A stretch of DNA of 64,000 nucleotides from an uncultured Chloroflexia bacterium (GCA_963746255.1 CAVVAJ010000006.1:7922-71921), one strand, 5' to 3'; shown: positions 6,749 through 64,000, counted from the stretch's first letter. Notes: generated by a model not told the origin, from the letters alone. Made by a program: numbers and translations.

Positions 6749-7708
6749 ATGACCGAAGAGAGATCACCGCATTTCACCAAACTTGGTACGACTGATATCT
6801 CGATCTCCCCGATGGGTATTGGAACCTGGGCATGGGGAGATCGTGTATTTTGGAATTATGGGCGCGATCACCAGGAAGCAGATATCCCGCCAACTGTCGA
6901 TGTCATGGTAGAAAATGGCATCAATTTTGTGGATACAGCTGAAGTGTATGGAAAGGGAAAGTCTGAGCGTTTGGTTGGAAAATATTTTGCTAACGAGATC
7001 TCTAATGCAGTCATCGCAACAAAATTTTTCCCATTTCCTTGGCGGCTAACGAAGAAATCTCTTATCCGAGCCATACAAAAGAGCCTGGAGCGGCTGCAGT
7101 TGGCGAAGGTACAACTATATCAAATACATTTCCCATACCCACCGGTGACAATAGAAACCTGGGCAGGTGCACTGCAGGAAGCTGTGCAGCGTGGGCTAAT
7201 AGAAGCGATCGGTGTTTCCAACTACAACAGCGAACAAATGCAGCGTATGCAGTCCGGGTTGATCAAATATGGACACATGTTAGCTTCTAATCAGGTCTCC
7301 TATTCACTCCTTGACCGCAAAATAGAGAAAGATGGTTTATTGGAGCTTTGCCGGGAACAACAAATCAGTATTATTGCTTACAGCCCGCTTGCCCAAGGCA
7401 TGTTAACAGGCAAGTACACACCAGAAAATCCCCCCCATGGTTTCAGAGCACGGCGTTATTCAGCACGCAAATTGGGTGAAATTCAGCATTTAGTGCGGAC
7501 TATGCGCAATATCGGGCAAGAACATAAAGGGAAAACCCCTGCCCAGGTTGCATTGAATTGGGTCATGGCCAAGGGAGCTATCCCTATCCCAGGGGCGAAG
7601 AACGCCCGTCAAGCTCAGGATAACGCAGGTGCCTTAGGTTGGCAGCTCAGTACGGATGAAGTAGCAGCTTTAGACACGGCAAGTGATAGAGCTTTGGCTG
7701 TATCTTGA
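6749..7708 (+). CDS. Aldo/keto reductase
   Basis: ..GIGTWAWG.., NFVDTAEVYGKGKSE, LYQIHFP and GVSNY are classic AKR motifs. 319 aa. Confidence 0.85.
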   Translation: MTEERSPHFTKLGTTDISISPMGIGTWAWGDRVFWNYGRDHQEADIPPTVDVMVENGINFVDTAEVYGKGKSERLVGKYFANEISNAVIATKFFPFPWRLTKKSLIRAIQKSLERLQLAKVQLYQIHFPYPPVTIETWAGALQEAVQRGLIEAIGVSNYNSEQMQRMQSGLIKYGHMLASNQVSYSLLDRKIEKDGLLELCREQQISIIAYSPLAQGMLTGKYTPENPPHGFRARRYSARKLGEIQHLVRTMRNIGQEHKGKTPAQVALNWVMAKGAIPIPGAKNARQAQDNAGALGWQLSTDEVAALDTASDRALAVS

Positions 7709-45925: not shown

Positions 45926-48061
45926 TTGGATCGCAATCCTGACGCGCAAGCATTTTGGAATCATCCAAAGTTAACCATGCCCCCCACTCGACCACGTTTA
46001 TTCTTATATCTCCTGCTTTCGGGATTATGTGGGTTATTTATCCTTATTTTCATTAATCCCCCTACGACCAACGCCCAGCAACCCAACCAATACGTGCTCA
46101 TTCCATCAGGTGAAAGTGGCCCAGCCACTTATCAGGGAATAATCGACTCCGCCCGCGACAATCTCATCCAGGGATATCTCCGAATATTGCTGCTACCAAT
46201 CGGAGAGGCGAGCAACCCGAATGAGATTGACCTCCTTGAAAGGACAGAAATTATTCAGCATCTAGAGCGACAACGCCTGCAAATTGAATATTTGTGCATA
46301 TTAACCATGCCTGCTGGTATACCCTGCGAAATTGAATTAGCCCCGATCATTACCCGGCAGGACGCATCTTCGTCAATCGTCGACCGCTTTTTTGAAAAGC
46401 CCCATTCAGCGGTCTTAATTACTGGAGACGACCCGCGCATAGCCCTGAATGTACTGGGCGGAACACGACTAGAGCGCAATTTATTCGAGGCATATCAAAA
46501 AGGCGAGATCATGGCCGGCGAAGGTGGCTCTACAAATATCTTCTCGACGGCCGCATTGATTGGCTATAATGAGGACTTCGGACCTTATGATGGGTTCAAT
46601 TTCGGATCGGTGGATGTTTGGCACACAGCAGAACAGCATGGACTCACTTTTGGGATCAAACAGGCAATCATTGACCATGCAGTACTGCAGCAAAATCACC
46701 TCACAAGACTCCTCAACGCAGTTCTGACTGCTGATACCCCCAACCTTGGCATTGGTATAGAAGATAATTCGGGTGTGAATATCGTGTCAGATACAATTTT
46801 AACAATGCCGTTTGGCGCGAGTACTATCACAATCGTTGACGCTGAGACATATCAAGCAACAGAAAACATTACGTACGAAGACTGCGGCAGTGCATCAGTG
46901 TGCTATCCCCAGTTCAGTGCCCGTAATATCTTGCTGCATCAGCTTGCACCCGGTCCCTATAGCTACGATCTTGAAGCACGCCGACATTCGCTTGCGGATC
47001 CCAATTCTTTTATGAAGCGTGATTTCTCGTCCCTATCAATACCAAAAAACAGTGGTGCTGTGTATATTTCTGGTGCAGCAGATATTCGCTTAGCAGCCGA
47101 TTCAGTCTCGTCTGAGCTCAAAGCATCCTTGACTAACGTTGAGGGTGAGATATTAGTTTTACTAGTTGATTATCAGGACAATATCTCTACAACCACAATC
47201 GAACGATTATATAGCAACTATTTCCAGCGCCCGGTTAGAATTATCAAACTCCCTGTGCAGGGCAGTGATTTTGAACTCCTAGAACTCGACAATATCGCCG
47301 CGATGGTTTTGCTCGCACGACCAGGCAGCACGATTCCAGCTGGTGCCTTTCACCAAATTAATAACTCGTGGCAGCAAGGGACACCACTGCTCATCAATTC
47401 CGCCGCCGCCCAATTGCTCGGCACATCTTATACACCGCTGCGGCAAAATTTGCCGAACACTTCGTCGATAAACATCGATCGTATCCCTACGAAAGCTGGT
47501 GCGAGTATGTTCGATTTTTCCCTTACCAGTTCTTTGCTAATCGGCAATCGCTGGCAAAGTATGCTAGGCACAGCTTTTCAGCACCCAGAAAACCTATCCA
47601 TTGGCTTGACCGCCGATTCCGGAATAATCCTCTCTCCAGATGGTGGGATTGCTGCAGGTACCGGGCCATTGGTTGTGCTGGATTTTCGCAGATCCATTCT
47701 CGAACAAGCTGCTGATGGAAACGGTGCTATTGCCAATGGTTTACTGGATATATTCCTACCTGGAGAGCGAGTAGTGCCAGTAATCGCGAATGCTCGAGCG
47801 CTGAAATCGCCACCACCCACACCAGAAATCCGGACACCCACTGCAACCTTACCACCAACACTGACACCTACAGCAACAGCGACCGCAACCCAAACCCCGA
47901 CTTTTACACCAAAACCAACTCGAACACGCAAACCCAGCGCCACTCCATTGACTGTTCCACCTTCAGCAAATCCCATCACTATCAATTGGATGGTTGCCAT
48001 CGGTGTACTCATAATCGTTATCATCTTATTTGGGCTATTATGGAACAGGCGGATCCTATAG
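45926..48061 (+). CDS. Hypothetical secreted protein with Pro/Thr-rich stalk and C-terminal TM anchor (weak class-I amidotransferase / peptidase S51-like region)
   Basis: A signal-like N-terminus (likely start ATG 45977), a PT-rich tract (PPPTPEIRTPTATLPPTLTPTATATATQTPTFTPKPT) and a terminal TM helix. The family assignment is weak. Confidence 0.4.
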   Translation: MDRNPDAQAFWNHPKLTMPPTRPRLFLYLLLSGLCGLFILIFINPPTTNAQQPNQYVLIPSGESGPATYQGIIDSARDNLIQGYLRILLLPIGEASNPNEIDLLERTEIIQHLERQRLQIEYLCILTMPAGIPCEIELAPIITRQDASSSIVDRFFEKPHSAVLITGDDPRIALNVLGGTRLERNLFEAYQKGEIMAGEGGSTNIFSTAALIGYNEDFGPYDGFNFGSVDVWHTAEQHGLTFGIKQAIIDHAVLQQNHLTRLLNAVLTADTPNLGIGIEDNSGVNIVSDTILTMPFGASTITIVDAETYQATENITYEDCGSASVCYPQFSARNILLHQLAPGPYSYDLEARRHSLADPNSFMKRDFSSLSIPKNSGAVYISGAADIRLAADSVSSELKASLTNVEGEILVLLVDYQDNISTTTIERLYSNYFQRPVRIIKLPVQGSDFELLELDNIAAMVLLARPGSTIPAGAFHQINNSWQQGTPLLINSAAAQLLGTSYTPLRQNLPNTSSINIDRIPTKAGASMFDFSLTSSLLIGNRWQSMLGTAFQHPENLSIGLTADSGIILSPDGGIAAGTGPLVVLDFRRSILEQAADGNGAIANGLLDIFLPGERVVPVIANARALKSPPPTPEIRTPTATLPPTLTPTATATATQTPTFTPKPTRTRKPSATPLTVPPSANPITINWMVAIGVLIIVIILFGLLWNRRIL

Positions 48062-52587: not shown

Positions 52588-53374
52588 CTATATGATCGCT
52601 GCCAGCATTTTTACAACTGCCTGGTAGACCGGTGATTCATCCCCTAATTCGATCAGCGGTTTCCCGCTGGCGTCAAACTCTGTTAATTCCAGATTTGCTG
52701 GTACAACACCCAGCAGGGGCACATCCAATCGGTCAATTTTCTCTTGTAAGATATCGGGGATGGTACCATTTAAGCGATTCAGTATCAAATAGGAATTTTC
52801 AATATTGATATCTAGTTCTTTTCTGAATTCCGCTATCCGCTCCGCCGCTACAATTTCCTCGCTGCGAAGGATCACTCACAATAAGCAAATGCTCGACATC
52901 ACGGGTCGTCCGCCGGCTTAGATGCTCCATACCAGCCTCGTTGTCAATAATTATAAAAGCGTAATTCTTGCTAATGCTGTCCACTACTTCACGTAAATTG
53001 TGGTTGACAGCACAGTAGCAGCCCTGCCCTTCGGGTTGACCCATTGCGATGAGATCAAAATCGTCTCCTTCAGAAAGCGCTGCGCGCACCTGGTAATCTA
53101 AATATTCCCGTTTGCTGATCCCCCCCGGAAGGGCGCCCATCGTCGCGCCACCTGCAGTCAGAGATTCTTTCACTTGAGCTAACATATCTTCACGGATATC
53201 TCCGATTGTCCAGTCCATTTCTAATCCCAGGACCATATTTAGATTCGCGCTAGGATCCGCATCAATAGCTAATACCGCACCCTTTTGGTTATCAACTAAG
53301 TACTTAATCACCATTCCAGCAATCGTAGTTTTACCTACACCACCCTTTCCCGCCAATGCAATTGTCGTTGACAT
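52588..53374 (-). CDS. CooC-type (MinD/ParA superfamily) nickel-insertion ATPase, apparent 1-nt frameshift
   Basis: GKGGVGKTT P-loop and a CxC motif (GQGCYC). The N-terminal ORF 52799-53374 and the C-terminal ORF 52588-52875 join as ..SDPSQRGIVAAERIAEF.. if one A of the AAA run (plus-strand TTT at 52854-52856) is removed. Confidence 0.7.
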
Positions 53375-53389
53375 TATCTTACACCTTCC

Positions 53390-54169
53390 TCAAGAAGCAA
53401 TCTTTTGATTGAGATTGCTAACAATTTTTTCTGCTGCGATCTTCAATTCCGGGGCATGGTCATAGACTGGGATACCCAATCGATCTGCTTCCTGGACTTT
53501 CATATCTGCGGGAAGTGTTCCAATAACCTCTAATCCAGGCGATACCTGAGTTAGAAAATCGACCTCTTCCGCATTACGCACCTTGTTACCGACCAGCCAC
53601 AAATTCGTTAGCCCGATATCCATTGCCAATTTCTTTATCTGAGCAGCAGTACCGATGGAACGTTTAGTCGGTTCTACTACCACTAACATGGCGTCGACGA
53701 AATCAACAGTCGCGCGTCCCAAATGTTCAACCCCTGCGTACATATCCAAGATCAAGACATCGTCCTTGCGAAAGAGCAGATGCGTGAAGAGAGTTTTCAG
53801 CATAGCACTTTCCGGACAGATGCATCCTGAACCACCCAGGTCAACAGCACCCATTTCTAGTAAACGTACATTGTTATGTATCACGCTGAACCGCTCAGGA
53901 ATATCGTCCACTCGGGGATTAATCGTAAAGAAACCACCGGTTGTCCCAGGTTTAGCACCCGTACGTTCGTAAATTAGGTCATCCATTTCTGAGATTGGAT
54001 GCAAATTCTCTTGCAGTTCCGGTGGAAACCCGAGCGCTCCTGCAAGACAAGGCGAAGGATCAGCATCGACTGCGAGAACTTCCCGGCCTGCATCTGCATA
54101 TACTTGAGCAATTAACGCGGCTAAAGTGGTTTTCCCAACGCCGCCTTTTCCAGTTATTGCTAGTTTCAT
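53390..54169 (-). CDS. CooC-type nickel-insertion ATPase
   Basis: MKLAITGKGGVGKTT and the CxC motif GSGCICPES. 259 aa. Confidence 0.8.
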   Translation of the reverse strand: MKLAITGKGGVGKTTLAALIAQVYADAGREVLAVDADPSPCLAGALGFPPELQENLHPISEMDDLIYERTGAKPGTTGGFFTINPRVDDIPERFSVIHNNVRLLEMGAVDLGGSGCICPESAMLKTLFTHLLFRKDDVLILDMYAGVEHLGRATVDFVDAMLVVVEPTKRSIGTAAQIKKLAMDIGLTNLWLVGNKVRNAEEVDFLTQVSPGLEVIGTLPADMKVQEADRLGIPVYDHAPELKIAAEKIVSNLNQKIAS

Positions 54170-54187: not shown

Positions 54188-55569
54188 TCATCCTTTCTTT
54201 TGGATTAATCTCGGACCATCGGGTCGATCCTCGACTTCATATCCGAAGTCATTCAATTGGCCGCGTAGTTCATCCGCTAGCGCCCAATCTTTACTCGCTC
54301 TTGCCGCTTGACGCTTTTCAATCAAGGTCTGGACCTCAGCAGGGATATCAGTAGATTTGGGAGCCCATTCCTTTAGCTGCAACCCCAATACTCGGTCGAA
54401 TATTAAAATCGTGGCTTTTTTTGTCGCATCCGGCAAGTCGCTTCGTACCAAATCCCATGCGACTGCAATCGCGCGCGGCATGTTTAAGTCCTCATTGATC
54501 TGTGCGACAAATTTATCCATGAAATCTTCATCGACATTTCCAGGAGTACCCCAACTATAAACCGATTGCCGCAGTCGTTCCAAAGAAGTCGTCGCGCTGT
54601 CTAAACCCTCCCAGGTAAAGGTCAGTTTCGAACGGTAATTGGCATTTAGACAGAAATAACGATATGCTAAAGGGTCATAGCCATTTTCAACCAGCGTATC
54701 AAGCCTGAGAAACTCTCCCGAGGATTTCGACATCCTTTCAGTATCCAACTGCAGGAAATATCCATGCATCCAGAAGTTAGCAAGCCTTGTCCCATAGCAA
54801 GCTTCGGTTTGGGCGATTTCGTTGGTGTGATGGACATTGATATGGTCCTCTCCGCCGCAGTGGATATCGAAAAACTCGCCCAAATACTTCGCGGACATTG
54901 CTGAGCATTCGATGTGCCAGCCAGGGAAGCCGACCCCCCATGGGCTATCCCACTCCATCTGACGCTGTTTATCTTTCGGGCTGAACTTCCACAAAGCAAA
55001 ATCGGTCACGTTCATTTTCTCGCCCATGTCGATCCGTGACCCAGCTTGCAACCCATCTATATCCAGCCGGCCAAGGGTGCCATAATCAGAAAGCTTTGAA
55101 GTATTAAAATAAATCCCATCGGAAGTCTGCGTAGGTATATCCTTTCTTCTCAATGCATCTCACAAAGTCAATTTGCTCTTGGATATGGTCAGTAGCCCGG
55201 CACCAGATGGTTGGATCTATGATGTTCAGGTCGCTCTAGATCATTTCTAAATGCCTGGGTATACTGTTCTGCGATTTCCTGGGCGGTTTTTCCAGTCCGC
55301 CGAGAGCCTTTCTCCATCTTATCTTCGCCAGTATCTGAATCCGAAACAAGATGCCCAACATCGGTGATATTCATCACATGGTTCACGATGTAGCCATTAA
55401 ATTCCAGCACCCGTCGTAAAAAATCTTCGAATATATACGTCCGCAGGTTGCCAATATGGGCGAAATCATAGACAGTTGGACCACAGGTATATAAACCTAC
55501 CCTGCCAGGTGCGAGCGGTTCGAATTCTCGCAATTTTCGCTCATATGTATCATATAGCTTCAAGATCAT
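54188..55569 (-). CDS. cysS: Cysteine--tRNA ligase, interrupted by two apparent +1 frameshifts
   Basis: The N-terminal ORF carries the HIGH-type motif (..[17 protein letters not shown]..). The middle piece [33 protein letters not shown] is readable only in a second frame (about 55131-55229). The C-terminal ORF carries ..WHIECSAM.. and a KMSKS motif (RMSKSSG). The total of 1382 nt equals 460 codons plus 2 extra nt. Confidence 0.85.
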
Positions 55570-55761: not shown

Positions 55762-55934
55762 GTGCGAAATAGCTTTGGAAGTAGGCAAGCGTACAGTCAC
55801 TGTTTCAGCCTGACTCGAAATTAAGGATCCGAGGATCCATCATATTCATTGGCTTGCCGCCACCACCCACGGCAAACAATACACCACTCAATTCAAGTCA
55901 TGGCTAGCATAGCATGCGAGAGGAGGTAAGCCGG

Positions 55935-57956
55935 ATGAGCCAAAATCCCAACGATAGTACTCCCATGCCGAATACGGTTCATTCTAGTAGGTCTAGCCCT
56001 AATATTGGCGTATATATCTGTCACTGCGGGACGAATATCGCAGGAGTTGTGGATGTTGAAGCGGTATCGGATTTCGCCTCACAACTTGAAGGGGTAAAAA
56101 TTTCCCGTACATATCCTTATATGTGCTCGGACCCCGGACAAGAGTTGATCAAAGATGATGTCATCAACCAAAACTTAGACCGGGTCGTTGTCGCCTCGTG
56201 TTCACCATTGATGCATGAGACAACTTTTCGAGCCGCCTGCGGCGAAGCTGGATTAAATCCTTTCCTTTTCCAGATGACCAATATCCGCGAGCACTGTTCA
56301 TGGGTAACCGACGATCGAGCTAGTGCAACGCAAAAGGCAAAATCTCTGGTTTCAGCTGCGATACACCGCGTGGCTCATCATCTACCATTGAACACCCGCC
56401 AGGTAGATGTGGGACAATCCGTACTTATAGTGGGCGGTGGCATTGCTGGAATTGAGGCTGCTCTGCGTTTAGCCGATTCCGGCAAGCATGTCTACTTGGT
56501 TGAGCGACAGCCTAGTATCGGTGGGCACATGGCCCAGCTGTATAAAACATTCCCCACCCTAGATTGTGCAGCTTGAATACTCACCCCGAAAATGGTGTCC
56601 GTCGGACGCCACGAAAACATCACTCTGCTGAGCTACAGTGAGGTTGAATCTGTCCAGGGTTATGTCGGCAATTTCACTGTCACTATCAGGAAAAATCCTA
56701 GGTACATAAACGAAGATTTGTGTACTGGCTGCGGTACGTGCGTAGAGAAATGTCCTTGGAAAAAAATACCTTCAGAGTTTGATCTGGGTAAGGGGAATCG
56801 ACCAGCCATATATTTTTCTTTTGCCCAAGCCGTTCCCCGTATTCCCGTCATCGATGTAAAAAACTGTGCATATTTCCGGAATGGTAAATGCCGGGCGTGT
56901 GAGAAATTCTGCCAAACTGGAGCAATTGACTTCCAACAACAAGCAGAGGTGGTCGAATTCAACATTGGCACGATCATCTTAGCAACGGGATTCAAAGATT
57001 TCGATCCGGGTAAAGCACCGCAGTATGGATATCCAGTACTGGATGATGTCCTCACCGGGATGGAATTTGAACGTATCGTTAACACAGGTGGTCCAACAGT
57101 TGGAGAAATCCGCACCGTAGATGGCCGAAAACCAGAACGGATTGCGATCCTGCATTGTGTTGGCTCACGCGATAAGGATCTTCACGAGTACTGCTCCCGC
57201 GTATGTTGTATGTACTCCTTGAAATTAGCGAAACTTATCCGGGATTATAGTGACGCGGATGTTGTCGAGTTCTATCGTGATATGCGTACATTTGGGAAAG
57301 GGTATGAGGTTTTTTATAAACACGTTCAGGAACAAGGGGTTGAATTCGTTCGCTTTGAGAAAGCTATCGCCGTCAGCCGCCATAATGGCCGGCTGCAAGT
57401 TTCAACAAAGGATATATACAGCGGCGAAGAACTACATACTCTTGTCGATATGGTTGTGCTCAGCACTGGATTTGAGCCCCAAGATGATCAATTAAAGACA
57501 GCCAAGAAGTTCGGCGTCAGCCTCAGCCCCGATGGGTTCTTCATGGAGAAACACCCTAAGTTAGCTCCTGTAGAAACCGCAACGGACGGTGTCTACTTAG
57601 CCGGTGCTTGCCAAAGTCCTAAAGATATTCCGGATAGTGTTGCACACGGTAGTGCAGCTGCGGCAGCAGCACTTTCATTGATGGATGCAGGACATGTAGA
57701 ACTAGAACCTTTTACTACGTATGTAATACCTGAAAAGTGTGGCAGCTGCCACACTTGTGAAGGCCTCTGCCCCTATGGAGCCATACAGATGGTGCCTTTC
57801 GAGGATCGGCTTGTAGCGTCAATCAACGAAGTTCTCTGCAAGGGTTGTGGGGCTTGTGCTGCAGCTTGCCCTTCTAGTGCAGTAGTGCAGCATGGTTTTA
57901 CTGATGCTCAAGTCCTAGCAGAGATTGAAGGCGCCTTATTGGAGAGATTGCAATGA
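55935..57956 (+). CDS. hdrA: Heterodisulfide reductase subunit A (HdrA)-like flavoprotein, predicted selenoprotein (TGA 56574-56576 = Sec)
   Basis: An RBS GAGGAGG precedes ATG 55935. Motifs: VYICHCGTNIAG, FAD motif VGGGIAGIEAAL, ferredoxin inserts CTGCGTCVEKCP and CGSCHTCEGLCP..CKGCGACAAACP. ORFs 55914-56576 and 56592-57956 are in the same frame and read ..FPTLDCAA-U-ILTPKMVSVGRH.. across the TGA. Confidence 0.85.
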
Positions 57957-60900
57957 ATTTGGAGAAAATCAGGACTGGAGTGTATGTTTGCCACTGTGGC
58001 AGTAATATCGCGTCTACAGTTGATGTAGATGATGTCGCGAACTATGCCAGTGATTTACCAGATGTATCGCTTACTCGTCACTATACATATATGTGCTCTG
58101 ACCCGGGGCAGGACTTGATTAAGGATGATATCCAGACACATGCGTTAAACCGGATCGTCGTCGCGTCATGCTCTCCCCTGATGCACGAAGAAACCTTTAA
58201 AAATGCTTGTAAAGCTGCAGGTCTCAACCCCTTCTTTTTCCAGATGGCAAATATCCGCGAACATTGCGCGTGGGTGATTGATGACCGAGTTCAGGCAACT
58301 GCCAAAGCAAAAAATATGGTTTCTGCAGCTGTTCGTCGTGTCCGCCACCATGCACCACTATCTATGCGCAGTGTGGATATGCAGCAATCCGCGCTAATCG
58401 TCGGTGGCGGAATCGCTGGTATTGAGGCTGCACTTCGCTTAGCCGATGCCGGTAAGCAAGTGTATTTGGTGGAACGCGAGCCCAGTATTGGCGGCCATAT
58501 GGCTCAGCTCTATAAAACATTTCCTACTCTAGATTGTGCGGCTTGAATACTTACACCAAAAATGGTGTCCGTTGGACGCCACAAGAATATCCAGCTTTTG
58601 AGCTACAGCGAAGTTAAATCGATATCGGGCTACGTCGGTAATTTCAAAGCCAAGATTCAGCGCTATCCCCGTTACATCGAAGAAGAAAAATGCACTGGCT
58701 GTGGAAAATGTGCTCAAGCCTGCCCGGTGGATACGGTAAATACTTTCGATGTTGGGATCAGCACACGTAAAGCCGCCTATCGCCATTCCGCCCAGGCAGT
58801 GCCCGGCGCTTATGTTATCGAGAAACAAGGTATAGCCCCTTGTAGGGATGCCTGTCCGACAGACCAACGCGCTCAAGGTTATATTGCATTGCTGCGGCAA
58901 AAACGCTATGCAGATGCGTATTGGGCAATTCGCCGAGAACATCCTTTCCCATCAGTTTGCGGGCGGGTCTGTAATCACGCCTGCGAAGATGCCTGCAGCC
59001 GGGGAATATTTGATTCGCCGGTTAATATTATGGGGATTAAACGCTTCATCTCGGATTGGGCTTTTGAGCATCGCAGTGAGTTAGCTTTTACCCAGGATAA
59101 ATCACTGATCGGCTCACCTTTTAAATCCGACCCTAAACCGACCGGCAAAAAAATCGCCATCATCGGTGCAGGACCTGCTGGCCTGACCGCTGCTCTAGAT
59201 CTCGTCCGGTTAGGGCACAAAGTTACAGCTTATGACTCTTCGCCGGTCGCTGGCGGGATGATGCGGGTCGGCATACCCCCGCACCGGTTGCCGCATAAAT
59301 ACCTAGATTGGGAAATTCAACAGATTCTGGAAGAAGGTGTGGAGCTGGAGCTCAATACTAGGGTTGATGATATCGCAAGTCTGCTTGATAACGGCTATGA
59401 TGCTGCCTTGATCGCTTCTGGGGCACACATCGCGAAAAAACTCCCCATTCGTAACTCCAATCACCCCGATAACCTCTTGAGCCTGGATATCCTGCGAAAT
59501 GCATGCTTAGGAAAGAGTCATGATCTAGCCGGTAAAAAGGTAGTAATCCTCGGAGGTGGCAATGTTCGCGTTAGACACTGCCCGTACAGTGCTGCGTCTC
59601 GGTGCGTCAGAAGTACGGCTAGCATGTCTCGAAACCCGAGGTGAAATGCCTGGTTTCGACTGGGAGATCTTGGTCGCTGTTGAAGAAGGAATCGAGATTT
59701 GTCCGGGACGGACTTTTCACGAAATAATCGTTGAAAATGAGCGTATAACTGGGATCCGCTGCTCGAGTGTAATGTTTCATGGTTTCAAGCGCAGCCGGCC
59801 AACTTTCGATATTATCCCAGAAACAGAACACATTTTGCCGGCAGATATCGTTGTTTGGGCGATTGGTCAGCGACCAGACTTCTCCTTCTTACCGCTGGAT
59901 GGCAGCATTAATATCCGTTATCCAATTGGTATCCAGTCTGATGAAGAGATGCTTACCACCAAGCCGGGCGTCTTTACTGCTGGTGACGTGCGCCGCGGGG
60001 TAACATTCTTCGTGGTCGATGCGATCGGAGAGGGTCATAAAGCTGCCCGTAGTATTGATCGCTTCTTGCGCGGTGAGCAGGGGCTCCGCGAACCGAGCAA
60101 ACCTCCCGTTGTCCAATTGGACGCGCAAACGATCGAAAACAAATTAAATGCAGGTGTTGCCAATCGCATGGAAAGAGTACCAATAAAAAGCATACCGGTA
60201 AACCAAAGACACCATAATTTTGAGGAAGTAGACCTGGCGCTAACAGAGGCAGAAGCGCTCGCCGAAGCCGAACGCTGTTTACGCTGTGGAATATGTTCTG
60301 AGTGCCTTGAATGTGTTGTCGCGTGCGAACGAGGTGCCATCGACCATAATATGCAGTCACACTACCTCAATCTAGATGTTGGAACCATCGTATTGGCAAC
60401 CGGCTTTAAAGATTTTGACCCCCGTGCTGTCCCAGAGCTCGGTTTTGGACAAATCGATAATGTGATCACGGCAATGGAATTTGAAAGGCTGATTAATTCA
60501 AGCGGCCCAACCGAAGGCAAAGTCTTGCTGAAGAATGGGCAAGCACCAAAGAGTGTCGCAATTTTGCATTGCGTCGGCAGCCGGGATGATCGCTACCATG
60601 ATTATTGCTCACGGGCTTGCTGCATGTACTCACTAAAGCTCGCCCAGCTCGTGCATGATTATGTCAATGCTGAAGTATTCGAGATCTACCGCGATATGCG
60701 TACTTTTGGCAAGGATTATGAGGAATTTTTCAACCGCACCCGTGAAAAAGGGATCAACTTCTACCATGGGGTAGTCAAATCAATTCAGCGTCAGAATGGC
60801 AAGCTCCTTGTTTCGTGGGACGAGAATTTCTTTAATCAACCTGACCGCGTTGCTGTAGATATGGTAATCCTCGCGACCGGTTTCGAACCCCAGGATGATA

Positions 60901-61400
60901 CCGCTCAAGTGGCGAAATTATTCGGTGTCAGCCGCAGCCGAGATGGCTATTTCCTCGAGCGGCATCCGAAGTTAGCACCGGTTGAGACGGCAACCGATGG
61001 AATTTACTTAGCCGGTGCCTGCCAGAGCCCTAAGGATATCCCGGATAGCGTTGTGCAAGCAGGCGCGGCTGCTGCAGCGGCTTTATCCATTATGGATCAG
61101 GGAACGATAAATATGGATCCGTCGATTGCCCACGTGGAAATTCAGCTATGCGCAGGGTGTGGCCAATGTGTTAATACCTGCCCCTACGAAGCGATTTCGC
61201 TGCAGCCTCTCGATAACCGCGGCCAAATCGCTTCTGTTAACAGCTACTTATGTAAGGGTTGTGGAACCTGTGCTGCTAGCTGCCCTAATAAAGCCATGTC
61301 ATTGATCCATTACAATGACCAGCAGATCATCAGCGAGATTGTGGGCGCACTCCAACCGATTACACCAATCGTACCTGGGCTGGCAGAGATTAAGAGGTGA
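57953..61400 (+). CDS. HdrA-like selenoprotein (TGA 58544-58546 = Sec) with an inserted GltD/NfnB-like NAD(P)H-binding module; one apparent frameshift near 59567
   Basis: The N-terminal ~290 aa and the C-terminal ~350 aa are paralogous to the preceding HdrA. Between them (about 58830-60080) lies CRDACP...CGRVCNHACEDAC, then IAIIGAGPAGLTAA.. and ..VVILGGGNV|ALDTAR.. and ..FTAGDV.. (glutamate synthase small-subunit-like). The frame changes +1 at about 59567. Confidence 0.8.
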
Positions 61401-61404
61401 TGTT

Positions 61405-62822
61405 GTGGATTTTGAACCAAAGATAATTGCTTTCCTTTGTACCTGGTGCAGTTATACCGGGGCAGACACCGCTGGTATAGCCCGCTTGAAAACACCGGCC
61501 AACGTACGTGCGATTCGCGTTCCCTGCTCCGGACGGGTTGCTCCAGAGATTATCATGCGTACATTCGATGAAGGGGCGGACGGTGTGCTGGTTTTAGGCT
61601 GCCATATCGGGGAGTGCCATTACGATTCAGGCAACCACCGCACTGCAAAGCGTATCCCGATATTAAGGTCGTTGATGTCCTTTGCTGGGCTCGATGCTGA
61701 ACGCTTGCGGCTCGATTGGGTTTCTGCATCTGAAGGGGAACGTTTCTCCCGAATTGTAAATGAATTTACCGACACAGTTAAACTGCTTGGGCCAGTTCGA
61801 TGGCGGATTGAAAAATCTTATCAACCCTATCCATCGCAGGTAGATACGGTCGGGAATGTTCCAATGATCCCCGGTCTGCTTTCTCAGACAACAAGAATGA
61901 CTGGTCAGGCTTCTCAGATAAACAGCCAATTAACCCTGAATATTCAGTCCACCGCACAAGAACTACTTGAGAGCGGTCAAGTTAACTGTATCATCGGGTA
62001 TGAGATCGGAACCCACGGCGGACACGCCCAGCGTTTGTTTACTCTCCAGAAGATGCAGAGAGACTGGTATGGAACCAGGATTGCACTCATAACTTAACCA
62101 CCTATCTTAATGACAAGCTAACCTCCACTTCTAATGGTCCTAGACACCAACAAATTGGTATCATCGTAAAACCGTGTGATTGCCGCTCCATAAATATCCA
62201 CCTCGCCGAAAATCGTTACAACCGTGATGACATACACATTATCGCAGTGAGCTGCAATGGTATTCGCCAGGGGGCAGGGACAACAGGACCAACTTTACCA
62301 AAACTAGCTACTTACCAGGCGCGCTGTTTAACCTGTTCACAAGTAGAACCCGTAATTTACGACACCTACCTAGAACAACCAGGTGGTAAAGAAGGTTCAA
62401 CCCTAATACCAGAAAGTGCTGGTCCTCAAACTGCACAGATATATTCGCTATCTACAGAAGAGCGGATGGACTTCTGGTTGGGGCAGTTTGACCGCTGCAT
62501 CCGCTGTTATGCGTGCCGCCAAGTGTGCCCAAGCTGCGATTGCCCGACTTGTTTATACGAGAGGGATGACTCACTCTGGGTAGGTTTAGGTGTTGGCATC
62601 AATGAAAAGCGGACCTTTCACCTCGGGCGCGCATTTCATCTTGCAGGACGCTGTATGGAATGCAACGAGTGCGAGCGAGTCTGTCCCGTTGGTATCCCCA
62701 TCAGCTTACTTAACCGCCAACTAGCTCAAGAAATGGAAAACCTTTTTGACCATCGCGCTGGTGAATATCCCCATCCATCTCCACTGCTTACAATCCTCGG
62801 AGGTCAGGAGCACCTGCCATGA
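61405..62822 (+). CDS. MvhD-like (methyl-viologen hydrogenase delta subunit) domain apparently fused to a multi-Cys 4Fe-4S protein; apparent -1 frame change near 62017-62031
   Basis: GTG 61405 lies 8 nt after AAGAGG. EPKIIAFLCTWCSYTGAD...IRVPCSGRV...GADGVLVLGCHIGECHY is the MvhD signature. The downstream part (open from 62004 in another frame) has CIRCYACRQVCPSCDCPTC and CMECNECERVCP. Confidence 0.7.
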
Positions 62823-62837
62823 TTTACATCAGGCCTG

Positions 62838-63765
62838 GACGACGTACCAGTACCACCCGAAGGAGAAGGACGTCGTCTGGGCGCAGCGGGTCGCCCGCTC
62901 GATGGGGATGCCGCAGCGGATGGTGCTGCCCCAGGGTCGCGACTGGGCGGACCAGCAGGCCACCGTGCGGCGCCGGCTGGAGTTCCAGACGTGGATGCAC
63001 ACCTGGCTCTTCCCGCTGGCCGACGCGCTGCACGACCAGCCGCTGCCGGCATCGACGGCGGCTACGGCGACGCCCTGCTGCGCGCCGACCTGGCAGGCAA
63101 GGCCGCCCGCGGGGACCTGCCGTGGCCGCAGTCGCTCTTCGACGGGATGGGCGGGCGGCGGCTCGACTTCCTCGCCGACGGCGCGGCCGCCCCGCTCCGC
63201 GAGGCTGCCTTGACGGCGTACTCCGACCTGGGCGCGACCGTCGCCGACCACCCCAACCGGCACACCCTCCTGCAGCTGCTCACCCGGCAGAACCGCGCGG
63301 TGACCACCGCGGCGCGACTGCTCGTCGGGCCGGAGACGGAGGTGTGGATGCCGTTCGCCCACCCGTCGGTGGTCCGGGCCGCGCTGGCGGTCCCCCTGGC
63401 GCAGAAGCAGGACCACTGCTACTACCGCGAGATGCTCCGCACCGCCTGCGGCCCCGAGGGCCACCCGTTCGAGCAACCACCCGGGCGCGCGCAGCCAGAA
63501 GGTCCGCAACGCCTTCCTACCCCCGGCCCTCGTCGGGTCGCTGATGGCGACGGTGCGGCGCAGCGAGCGGGCGACCGCCCTGCTCGGGCCACTGCTGCGC
63601 GAGGCTCTGGCGGCCGAGGACGTCGAGCCGCTGCGGCGGCGGCTCCGGCCGGTCGATGTGCTGGCCTGGGCCGCACTGCTCGCCGACGTCGAGGAGGAGT
63701 ACGCCGGCCGGCTGGACTGGTCGGGCTGGCCCGGCGGCTCATCCGACTCCACCCCGTGGGGATAG
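62838..63765 (+). pseudogene. High-GC fragment resembling the C-terminal region of an asparagine synthase-related (PP-loop amidotransferase) protein; frame changes at about 63045 and about 63475
   Basis: A sensible protein is readable only by hopping frames: ..DVVWAQRVARSMGMP.. / ..PETEVWMPFAHPSVVRAALAVPLAQK..YYREMLR.. / ..RSQKVRNAFLPPALVGSLMATVRRSE...TPWG*. There is no 5' end. Composition is completely different from the rest of the window. Confidence 0.4.
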
Positions 63766-63823
63766 TCCAGTGCTCTTTCGGGCCGTTTCGCGGGATTTCA
63801 CCCCGCAAACGCACTGGACTATC
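63761..63823. repeat. 13-bp perfect inverted repeat (hairpin) straddling the stop codon of the high-GC gene fragment
   Basis: GATAGTCCAGTGC (63761-63773) pairs with GCACTGGACTATC (63811-63823). An inner GCGGG/CCCGC stem lies in the loop. Confidence 0.6.
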
Positions 63824-64000
63824 TCTCCTCGCGGGAACGTCTCGTGGGTTCGTCCCTCCGCGCCGTCCCCCGGAGACGCAGCGACCCGCAGGCGTTGACC
63901 TCACGACGAATCGTGACGCCGTCCGGGGGGACGTGCCCGGATCGCCTGCGGGTCGGGTGACTGCGATGGATTCGCCAGCGCGTGGCCCAGTCGAAGCTCG

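Follow-up and report, generated by a model that had tools for sequence, protein, structure and literature searches.

In-frame TGA codons in two tandem HdrA-family genes of an Anaerolineae-type genome are predicted to encode selenocysteine

A stretch of 64,000 nucleotides from an uncultured Chloroflexia bacterium (GCA_963746255.1, CAVVAJ010000006.1:7922-71921), referred to in full as the window and numbered from its first letter, carries two adjacent genes of the HdrA family, here named hdrA1 and hdrA2, each of which contains a single in-frame TGA. The decoding of these two codons, which almost certainly specify selenocysteine (Sec) under the direction of a downstream hairpin, as judged by comparison with related sequences, is the focus of this report. 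Each gene appears as a pair of open reading frames (ORFs) in one frame, 55914-56576 and 56592-57956 for hdrA1 and 57953-58546 and 58562-59644 for hdrA2, with the TGA and the five codons after it as the sole interruption. The ATG of hdrA2 overlaps the stop codon of hdrA1 (ATGA, 57953-57956), and for hdrA1 itself the ATG at 55935 was preferred over that at 55914 because the motif GAGGAGG lies 8 nt upstream of the former. When the TGA is read through, both genes give HMAQLYKTFPTLDCAA, the TGA and then ILTPKMVSVGRH, with the local context KTFPTLDCAA-TGA-ILTPKMVSVGRH. The codons between the TGA and the following ATG are ATA CTC ACC CCG AAA in hdrA1 and ATA CTT ACA CCA AAA in hdrA2, which differ at three sites, all of them synonymous. 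The coordinates of these and of the neighbouring features are collected in Table 1.

Table 1. Features of the hdrA1-hdrA2 region, in window coordinates (SECIS, selenocysteine insertion sequence; MFE, minimum free energy)
Feature	Position	Strand	Description	Basis
Shine-Dalgarno-like GAGGAGG	55920-55926	+	8 nt 5' of the hdrA1 start codon	From sequence
hdrA1	55935-57956	+	Full-length HdrA, 673 codons including one UGA	
hdrA1 in-frame TGA	56574-56576	+	Predicted Sec codon (CxxU motif DCAAU)	Alignment with 5odc_A and 9sfi_A
hdrA1 hairpin, predicted SECIS	56593-56611	+	UGGUGUCC-GUC-GGACGCCA; 8 bp, loop begins 24 nt after UGA, MFE -11.3 kcal/mol	
hdrA2	57953-61400	+	HdrL-type, ~1148 aa after correction of one frameshift	ORFs and NCBIfam
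hdrA2 in-frame TGA	58544-58546	+	Predicted Sec codon	Same column and peptide context as hdrA1
hdrA2 hairpin, predicted SECIS	58563-58581	+	UGGUGUCC-GUU-GGACGCCA; differs from the hdrA1 hairpin at the third loop base only	
GltD/NfnB-like module in hdrA2	58808-60386	+	NAD(P)H-binding Fe-S flavoprotein module	NCBIfam PRK12771 and gltA/GltD families
Apparent extra base in hdrA2	59567	+	GTT[C]GCG, breaks the frame	Deletion restores frame; homologue comparison
mvhD	61402-62822	+	Cys form VLVLGCHIGECHY with FlpD domain; a 2x[4Fe-4S] domain protein is fused to it or comes after it	Pfam, NCBIfam, locus comparison

With a Cys placed at the TGA, the hdrA1 product matches 5odc_A along almost its entire length (phmmer against the PDB, E=7e-212, residues 21-668 on 3-650). 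It scores 804 bits with the NCBIfam profile HdrA2 and 619 bits with HdrA; both values lie under the equivalog cut-offs, the models having been built with an MvhD domain fused to HdrA. The motifs CHCG, YMCSDPG and ASCSP of the N-terminal domain are kept in both proteins of the window. The TGA is aligned with Cys197 of 5odc_A, which is the second of the two Cys in DCxxC (KTFPTNDCSIC(197)ILAPKMV), and in the same column 9sfi_A, also from the PDB, has the non-standard residue X (...KTFPTDDCAMXILAPKMV...).

The conservation of this codon was followed in 80 related loci obtained from a scan of one genome per species, nearly all of them metagenome-assembled genomes of Anaerolineae/Anaerolineales with amino-acid identities of at most 76%. 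The suggestion that the window derives from a Chloroflexota-type genome is in line with these relatives. Across the 80 loci and the window, the site is TGA in 148 of 159 copies, drawn from ~75 other genomes, and TGC or TGT in the other 11. The tandem arrangement is conserved among the related loci, both tandem paralogues carry the TGA, and protein identity is ~70% on both sides of it. A metagenome search with the exact degenerate pattern DCAA-TGA-ILTPK plus hairpin found the combination in at least 120 contigs, with 152 TGA copies among the matches listed. These counts bear directly on the explanation that the TGAs arose by inactivating mutation or by errors in sequencing and that the genes are pseudogenes. 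That explanation draws on the frameshifts present within 8 kb, of which one is in hdrA2 (~59567), two are in the cysteinyl-tRNA synthetase gene cysS and one is in the mvhD-fusion gene (~62019). Those frameshifts, however, are private to the window, unlike the TGAs, which recur at the same codon in the 148 copies and the metagenome contigs, more than 300 independent copies altogether, and are flanked on either side by equally well conserved protein sequence. Errors or gene decay as the origin of the TGAs have next to no probability and are effectively refuted by the comparative data, an assembly artefact common to so many independent projects being implausible.

The 11 Cys-form copies are found in seven loci (L021, L046, L049, L056, L060, L078 and L079), in four of which (L046, L049, L056 and L060) both paralogues carry Cys. 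Such grouping by genome would be expected if whole lineages had gained or lost the use of Sec. Among database proteins, the Cys forms P0001-P0004, P0007 and P0009 are contiguous and full-length; therefore, the homologues are not two genes that break at this point.

The same comparison is relevant to the view that the genes are truly split, with translation stopping at the TGA and a separate C-terminal polypeptide starting at the ATG five codons on (two products of 213 and 454 aa from hdrA1, with hdrA2 divided in the same manner). Gene callers annotate the genes in this way, an ATG follows the TGA in most copies, and the closest database relatives (91% and 88% identity) are known only as 454-aa proteins beginning MVSVGRH, the full-length database proteins being the Cys forms. 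On the other hand, ILTPK, or in rare cases ILAPK or ILSPK, is encoded throughout by the five codons that follow the TGA while their synonymous sites are free to vary, as seen in 145 distinct sequences, no ribosome-binding site precedes the ATG, and the break would sit within the FAD (flavin adenine dinucleotide)-binding domain, exactly at a cluster-ligand Cys, where the Cys-form homologues are contiguous. Furthermore, 6 genome and 3 metagenome copies have ACG in place of the ATG, and a restart there is therefore impossible in those copies. We consider truly split genes very improbable. The original prediction had described the single-frame ORF pairs, their common read-through peptide, the TGA at the second Cys of the HdrA motif, the upkeep of the five codons as coding sequence and the lack of a ribosome-binding site for a restart, and had named homologues that break into two genes as a check; in each of these respects the sequence and the alignments bear it out.

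A hairpin follows each TGA. The original prediction had placed 7-bp hairpins with GU in the loop at these sites; the places and the loop are right, and the stem is 8 bp long once the flanking U-A pair is counted. The 19-mer occurs exactly twice in the 64-kb window, against 0.07 matches expected. For bacterial SECIS elements, the published criteria ask for an apical loop of 3-9 nt whose first two positions contain G, followed by G or U, an upper stem of 4-16 bp, a distance from UGA to loop of 16-37 nt and an MFE of -7.5 kcal/mol or lower (PMC13188914). The hairpin has an apical loop of 3 nt (GUN, as GUC, GUU or GUG) in keeping with the G[G/U] rule, an upper stem of 8 bp, a UGA-to-loop spacing of 24 nt and an MFE of -11.3 kcal/mol, and it thus lies within all four published limits, which agrees with the earlier judgement that its position is plausible for a bacterial SECIS.

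Evidence for selection on the hairpin comes from codon usage in the 145 distinct TGA-form sequences, where codon entropy was computed among sequences sharing the consensus amino acid. The stem codons Val GTG, Ser TCC, Gly GGA and Arg CGC, which are fourfold or sixfold degenerate at the third position, have entropies of only 0-0.15 bits, compared with 1.37 bits for the loop Val and 0.6-1.8 bits for the flanking codons. In the alignment, 99.1% of cells are in standard pairs, compared with 25-61% when the partner is slid. Cys-form genes that encode the same peptide, MVSVGRH, use other codons (e.g., GTC TCC GTC GGC CGC), with the reference pairing lost, and over the 30-nt segment the MFE averages -12.0 +/- 0.7 kcal/mol in the 148 Sec forms as opposed to -6.4 +/- 2.5 in the 11 Cys forms. 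Taken at the level of sequence comparison, these patterns indicate that the hairpin is under RNA-level selection, and only in the TGA forms. In L080, a member of the Dehalococcoidales with 57% identity, the peptide is MASVRSH and the nucleotide sequence differs, yet a 7-bp hairpin with a GGU loop lies at the same distance.

Two Cys-form hdrA genes (L056:10619 and L060:10574) still fold, where the SECIS would be, into an imperfect but fairly stable hairpin, with -12.0 and -10.0 kcal/mol, respectively. These may be remnants of a SECIS after conversion of Sec to Cys, a kind described earlier (PMC1794560).

Downstream of its hairpin, hdrA2 departs from hdrA1. The original prediction had let the second gene end at 59644; with one base removed near 59567, the GltD motif GGGNVALDTART is restored, the ORF 57953-59644 is joined to the ORF 59556-61400, and the gene runs to 61400 with 1148 aa. 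Among the related loci, 64 matches cross this point in one frame. The insertion is probably an assembly indel, the alternative being a very recent inactivation. In the corrected product, NCBIfam profiles are laid out as HdrA2 (residues 7-304), PRK12771 (286-811, 493 bits) and HdrA (774-1134), and by this layout the architecture is that of HdrL, i.e., an HdrA with a GltD/NfnB-like module inside the inserted-ferredoxin domain. The gene that follows encodes a product with Pfam matches to FlpD (E=1e-48) and the Fer4 families and an NCBIfam match to VhuD. Its frame changes near 62019 (GTHG / RTRPAF...), which is another apparent indel, and its MvhD domain together with the domain of two 4Fe-4S motifs resembles a single fused gene of L023.

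Several related loci carry a third TGA-bearing HdrA copy; in L007, L012, L048, L058, L074, L075 and L076 it lies within 10 kb of the tandem pair, and L007, L012, L048, L075 and L076 also have a second match to the GltD-like insert. The third copies and extra inserts point to repeated duplication of a Sec-HdrA/HdrL module.

In the wider sequence, TGA is also used as a regular stop codon. It is the commonest ordinary stop in the window, where it ends 22 other ORFs, and a recoded genome in which UGA means Trp or Gly was rejected on account of this frequency. In-frame TGAs of the selenoprotein type are found in a second gene family of the related loci: in L080:11980-12381 and L068:1084-710 (minus strand), mvhD has an in-frame TGA at a conserved Cys (VLVCG-TGA-HPGECHY and VLVAG-TGA-MEGDCHY), followed by a 7-bp hairpin, AUUACCU-GGA-AGGUAAU, whose stem starts 16 nt and whose loop starts 23 nt after the UGA. 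The MvhD of the window has Cys where these two have TGA.

Several observations weigh against the assignment of the two TGAs to Sec. Single-sequence folding of the hairpins is weak and statistically unremarkable (z = -0.9 and -1.8 relative to shuffles, in 67-nt windows); the significance of the hairpin comes only from comparison, with the 19-mer present exactly twice in the window and the hairpin conserved at 148 homologous TGA sites. Covariation in the stem is sparse because the stem is nearly invariant: compensatory double changes, from G-C to A-U, occur in three cells and in only one pair, through Val to Thr together with the synonymous change CGC to CGT, and a second pair shows U-G to C-G. 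Rfam gave no SECIS family, only chance matches, when the window was searched at the gathering threshold and the segment 56450-58750 at E<=10. The sequence quality in this part of the window is imperfect, with hdrA2 not intact as sequenced and several private frameshifts in the same stretch (hdrA2, cysS twice and the mvhD-fusion gene). Finally, selA, selB, selD and a tRNA-Sec were not found in the 64-kb window or in the ~1.4 Mb of related flanks. In particular, ARAGORN predicted no tRNA of any kind in the window, and for 60 related loci it gave no tRNA-Sec, a Pfam scan of 30 distinct ORFs of the window gave no SelA, SelB or SelD, and tblastn with approximate E. coli SelA, SelB and SelD queries gave no match in all related loci and the window. 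For the genome itself this absence is uninformative because the window is only a 64-kb piece.

The absence of the machinery from the available sequence is also what speaks for a third explanation, in which UGA is read through without Sec, a near-cognate tRNA inserting Cys, Trp or Arg and the hairpin serving as a general stimulator of read-through. Several facts are difficult to reconcile with it. The hairpin fits the specific geometry and the G[G/U] loop rule of bacterial SECIS elements, the site coincides with the Sec/Cys column already known from an established selenoprotein family, and other selenoprotein-type TGAs are present in mvhD of related loci. In addition, SelB has been reported in single-cell genomes of Anaerolineales and in A. 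thermophila, and Sec-containing FdhA in several of them (PMC4959059). Read-through of this kind deserves very little credence. As a whole, the locus is very probably best explained as two selenoprotein genes with SECIS-directed Sec at the Cys197 column, encoding HdrA and HdrL-type subunits of a likely bifurcating or confurcating complex.

For such a pair of selenoproteins, the following sequence of events can be proposed. SelB carrying Sec-tRNA(Sec) would bind the 8-bp hairpin with its GUN loop, which starts 17 nt after each UGA, and the ribosome would insert Sec at the UGA instead of terminating, so that Sec would take the place of Cys197 of HdrA. In MvhAGD-HdrABC, as solved, the [4Fe-4S] cluster in the N-terminal domain of each HdrA is completed in trans by Cys197 of the partner HdrA (PMC9012536). 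This cluster is on the route that electrons take from the bifurcating FAD to ferredoxin. HdrA paralogues that are fused or encoded in tandem are believed to pair as heterodimers (PMC9012536), and by the same reasoning an HdrA/HdrL heterodimer is plausible here. In an HdrA/HdrL dimer, possibly such a heterodimer, each subunit would give a selenolate ligand to the other, the GltD-like module of HdrL would couple the dimer to NAD(P)H, and MvhD with the Fe-S protein would form a third electron path. The most likely assembly of HdrA1, HdrL and the MvhD/Fe-S protein is a complex in the cytoplasm for flavin-based electron bifurcation or confurcation linked to NAD(P)H. A more far-reaching proposal, which we advance tentatively and regard as rather unlikely, is a class-wide obligate Sec-HdrA/Sec-HdrL heterodimer in Anaerolineae with mutual selenolate ligands to the N-terminal [4Fe-4S] clusters of an NAD(P)H-linked bifurcating complex, in which the near-invariance of the stem, common to both paralogues in ~75 species, would result from tight co-evolution with a lineage-specific SelB or from ongoing gene conversion. 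If true, the obligate module would be a clean natural system for the study of Se-ligated Fe-S clusters and of SECIS recognition.

Outside the hdrA region, the window shows further signs of imperfect assembly. The cysS gene (54188-55569, minus strand) has two 1-nt frame changes, near 55215 (CGA[C]CTG) and 55130 (TAC[G]CAG), and is thereby distributed over frames 0, 1 and 2; because the gene is essential, these breaks point to sequence errors rather than decay. At ~62,830, just past the ATG of the gene after the Fe-S domain, the G+C content jumps from ~0.50 to ~0.75, and the final 1.2 kb (~62,830-64,000) looks like foreign high-GC DNA, in which Rfam detects the actinobacterial sRNA Ms_IGR-5 (63876-64000, minus strand, 53.9 bits, E=3e-9). 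This suggests that two sequences without relation to each other meet in the window, as a chimera or as contigs that were concatenated. Neither this junction nor the imperfect assembly affects the finding.

Other junctions in the window resemble those of the hdrA genes only superficially. At 52799-54169 (minus strand), two same-frame genes for CooC/MinD-type P-loop ATPases are separated by TGA plus five codons; the TGA at the 53392 junction is an ordinary stop because each of the two genes has its own N-terminal GKGGVGKTT P-loop. The single-stop junction at 7706 was likewise rejected as an ordinary gene end, with the AKR Pfam domain complete before it. The scan of the window listed further single-stop junctions at 47713, 49726 and 63542. 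A generic scan of the related loci for in-frame TGAs gave 710 candidates, mostly out-of-frame artefacts, and was too noisy for use.

Anaerolineae are abundant in sediments, wetlands and digesters. Gene callers cut the hdrA genes at the TGA, and HdrA-based electron bifurcation in Anaerolineae is therefore systematically mis-annotated and their dependence on selenium overlooked. In the literature searched, no description of Sec-HdrA in Anaerolineae turned up. What is added is modest, namely the lineage, conservation throughout the class and an invariant SECIS; Sec-HdrA, Sec-HdrL and bacterial SECIS elements have already been described, and current knowledge is not overturned. Nevertheless, one SECIS hairpin is now represented by more than 300 examples from nature, and the predicted replacement by Sec of an inter-subunit Fe-S cluster ligand on the ferredoxin branch bears on the question of why Sec is favoured there.

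The known systems allow the locus to be placed more precisely. HdrA is an established CxxU selenoprotein family (PMC13188914, a 2026 review; PMC1794560), as had been pointed out for this locus from the beginning, and Sec-HdrA was counted in 16 genes in a 2006 survey (PMC1794560) and in 103 genes from 42 organisms in a 2016 survey. The predicted proteins belong to the same family as the Sec-HdrA of Methanococcales (e.g., M. jannaschii and M. maripaludis) and of Deltaproteobacteria and Clostridia (Syntrophobacter fumaroxidans, Moorella thermoacetica and others), and their predicted Sec has the same position, with CxxU at the column of Cys197 in 5odc; as in the window, known Sec-HdrA genes cluster with mvhD/frhD. 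In contrast to the known cases, the host lineage is Anaerolineae (Chloroflexota), MvhD is of the Cys form, and the part of the operon retained by the window shows no hydrogenase or hdrBC genes. The predicted SECIS is part of the coding region, like those of bacteria, whereas that of archaea is in the 3' untranslated region.

The hairpin itself is similar to the bSECISearch model of Zhang and Gladyshev (as given in PMC13188914) in its small apical loop of G then U, its spacing, its stem and its energy. It differs from that model in a loop of the smallest permitted size, 3 nt, which becomes 5 nt on opening of the closing C-G pair, and in a stem sequence that is almost invariant across a bacterial class and in both paralogues. 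The bulged U of the E. coli fdhF SECIS is not seen in it.

With regard to gene architecture, hdrA-hdrA tandems and hdrA_N-insert-hdrA_C genes have been noted in Deltaproteobacteria (PMC1794560). In Desulfobacterium autotrophicum HRM2, the selenoprotein HdrL is described as a fusion of heterodisulfide reductase and glutamate synthase; mvhD comes after its gene, and at one locus hdrL and hdrA stand in tandem (PMC2702500). By its architecture, hdrA2 is comparable to this HdrL, with a GltD-like module inserted in HdrA, the predicted Sec and mvhD next to it, but in the window hdrA precedes hdrL, and the hdrL copy is frameshifted. The MvhAGD-HdrABC complex (5ODC) has in common with both window proteins the three N-terminal-domain motifs and the column in which Cys197 corresponds to the predicted Sec; while the methanogen HdrA forms a symmetric homodimer in that structure, the window encodes two different HdrA paralogues in tandem.

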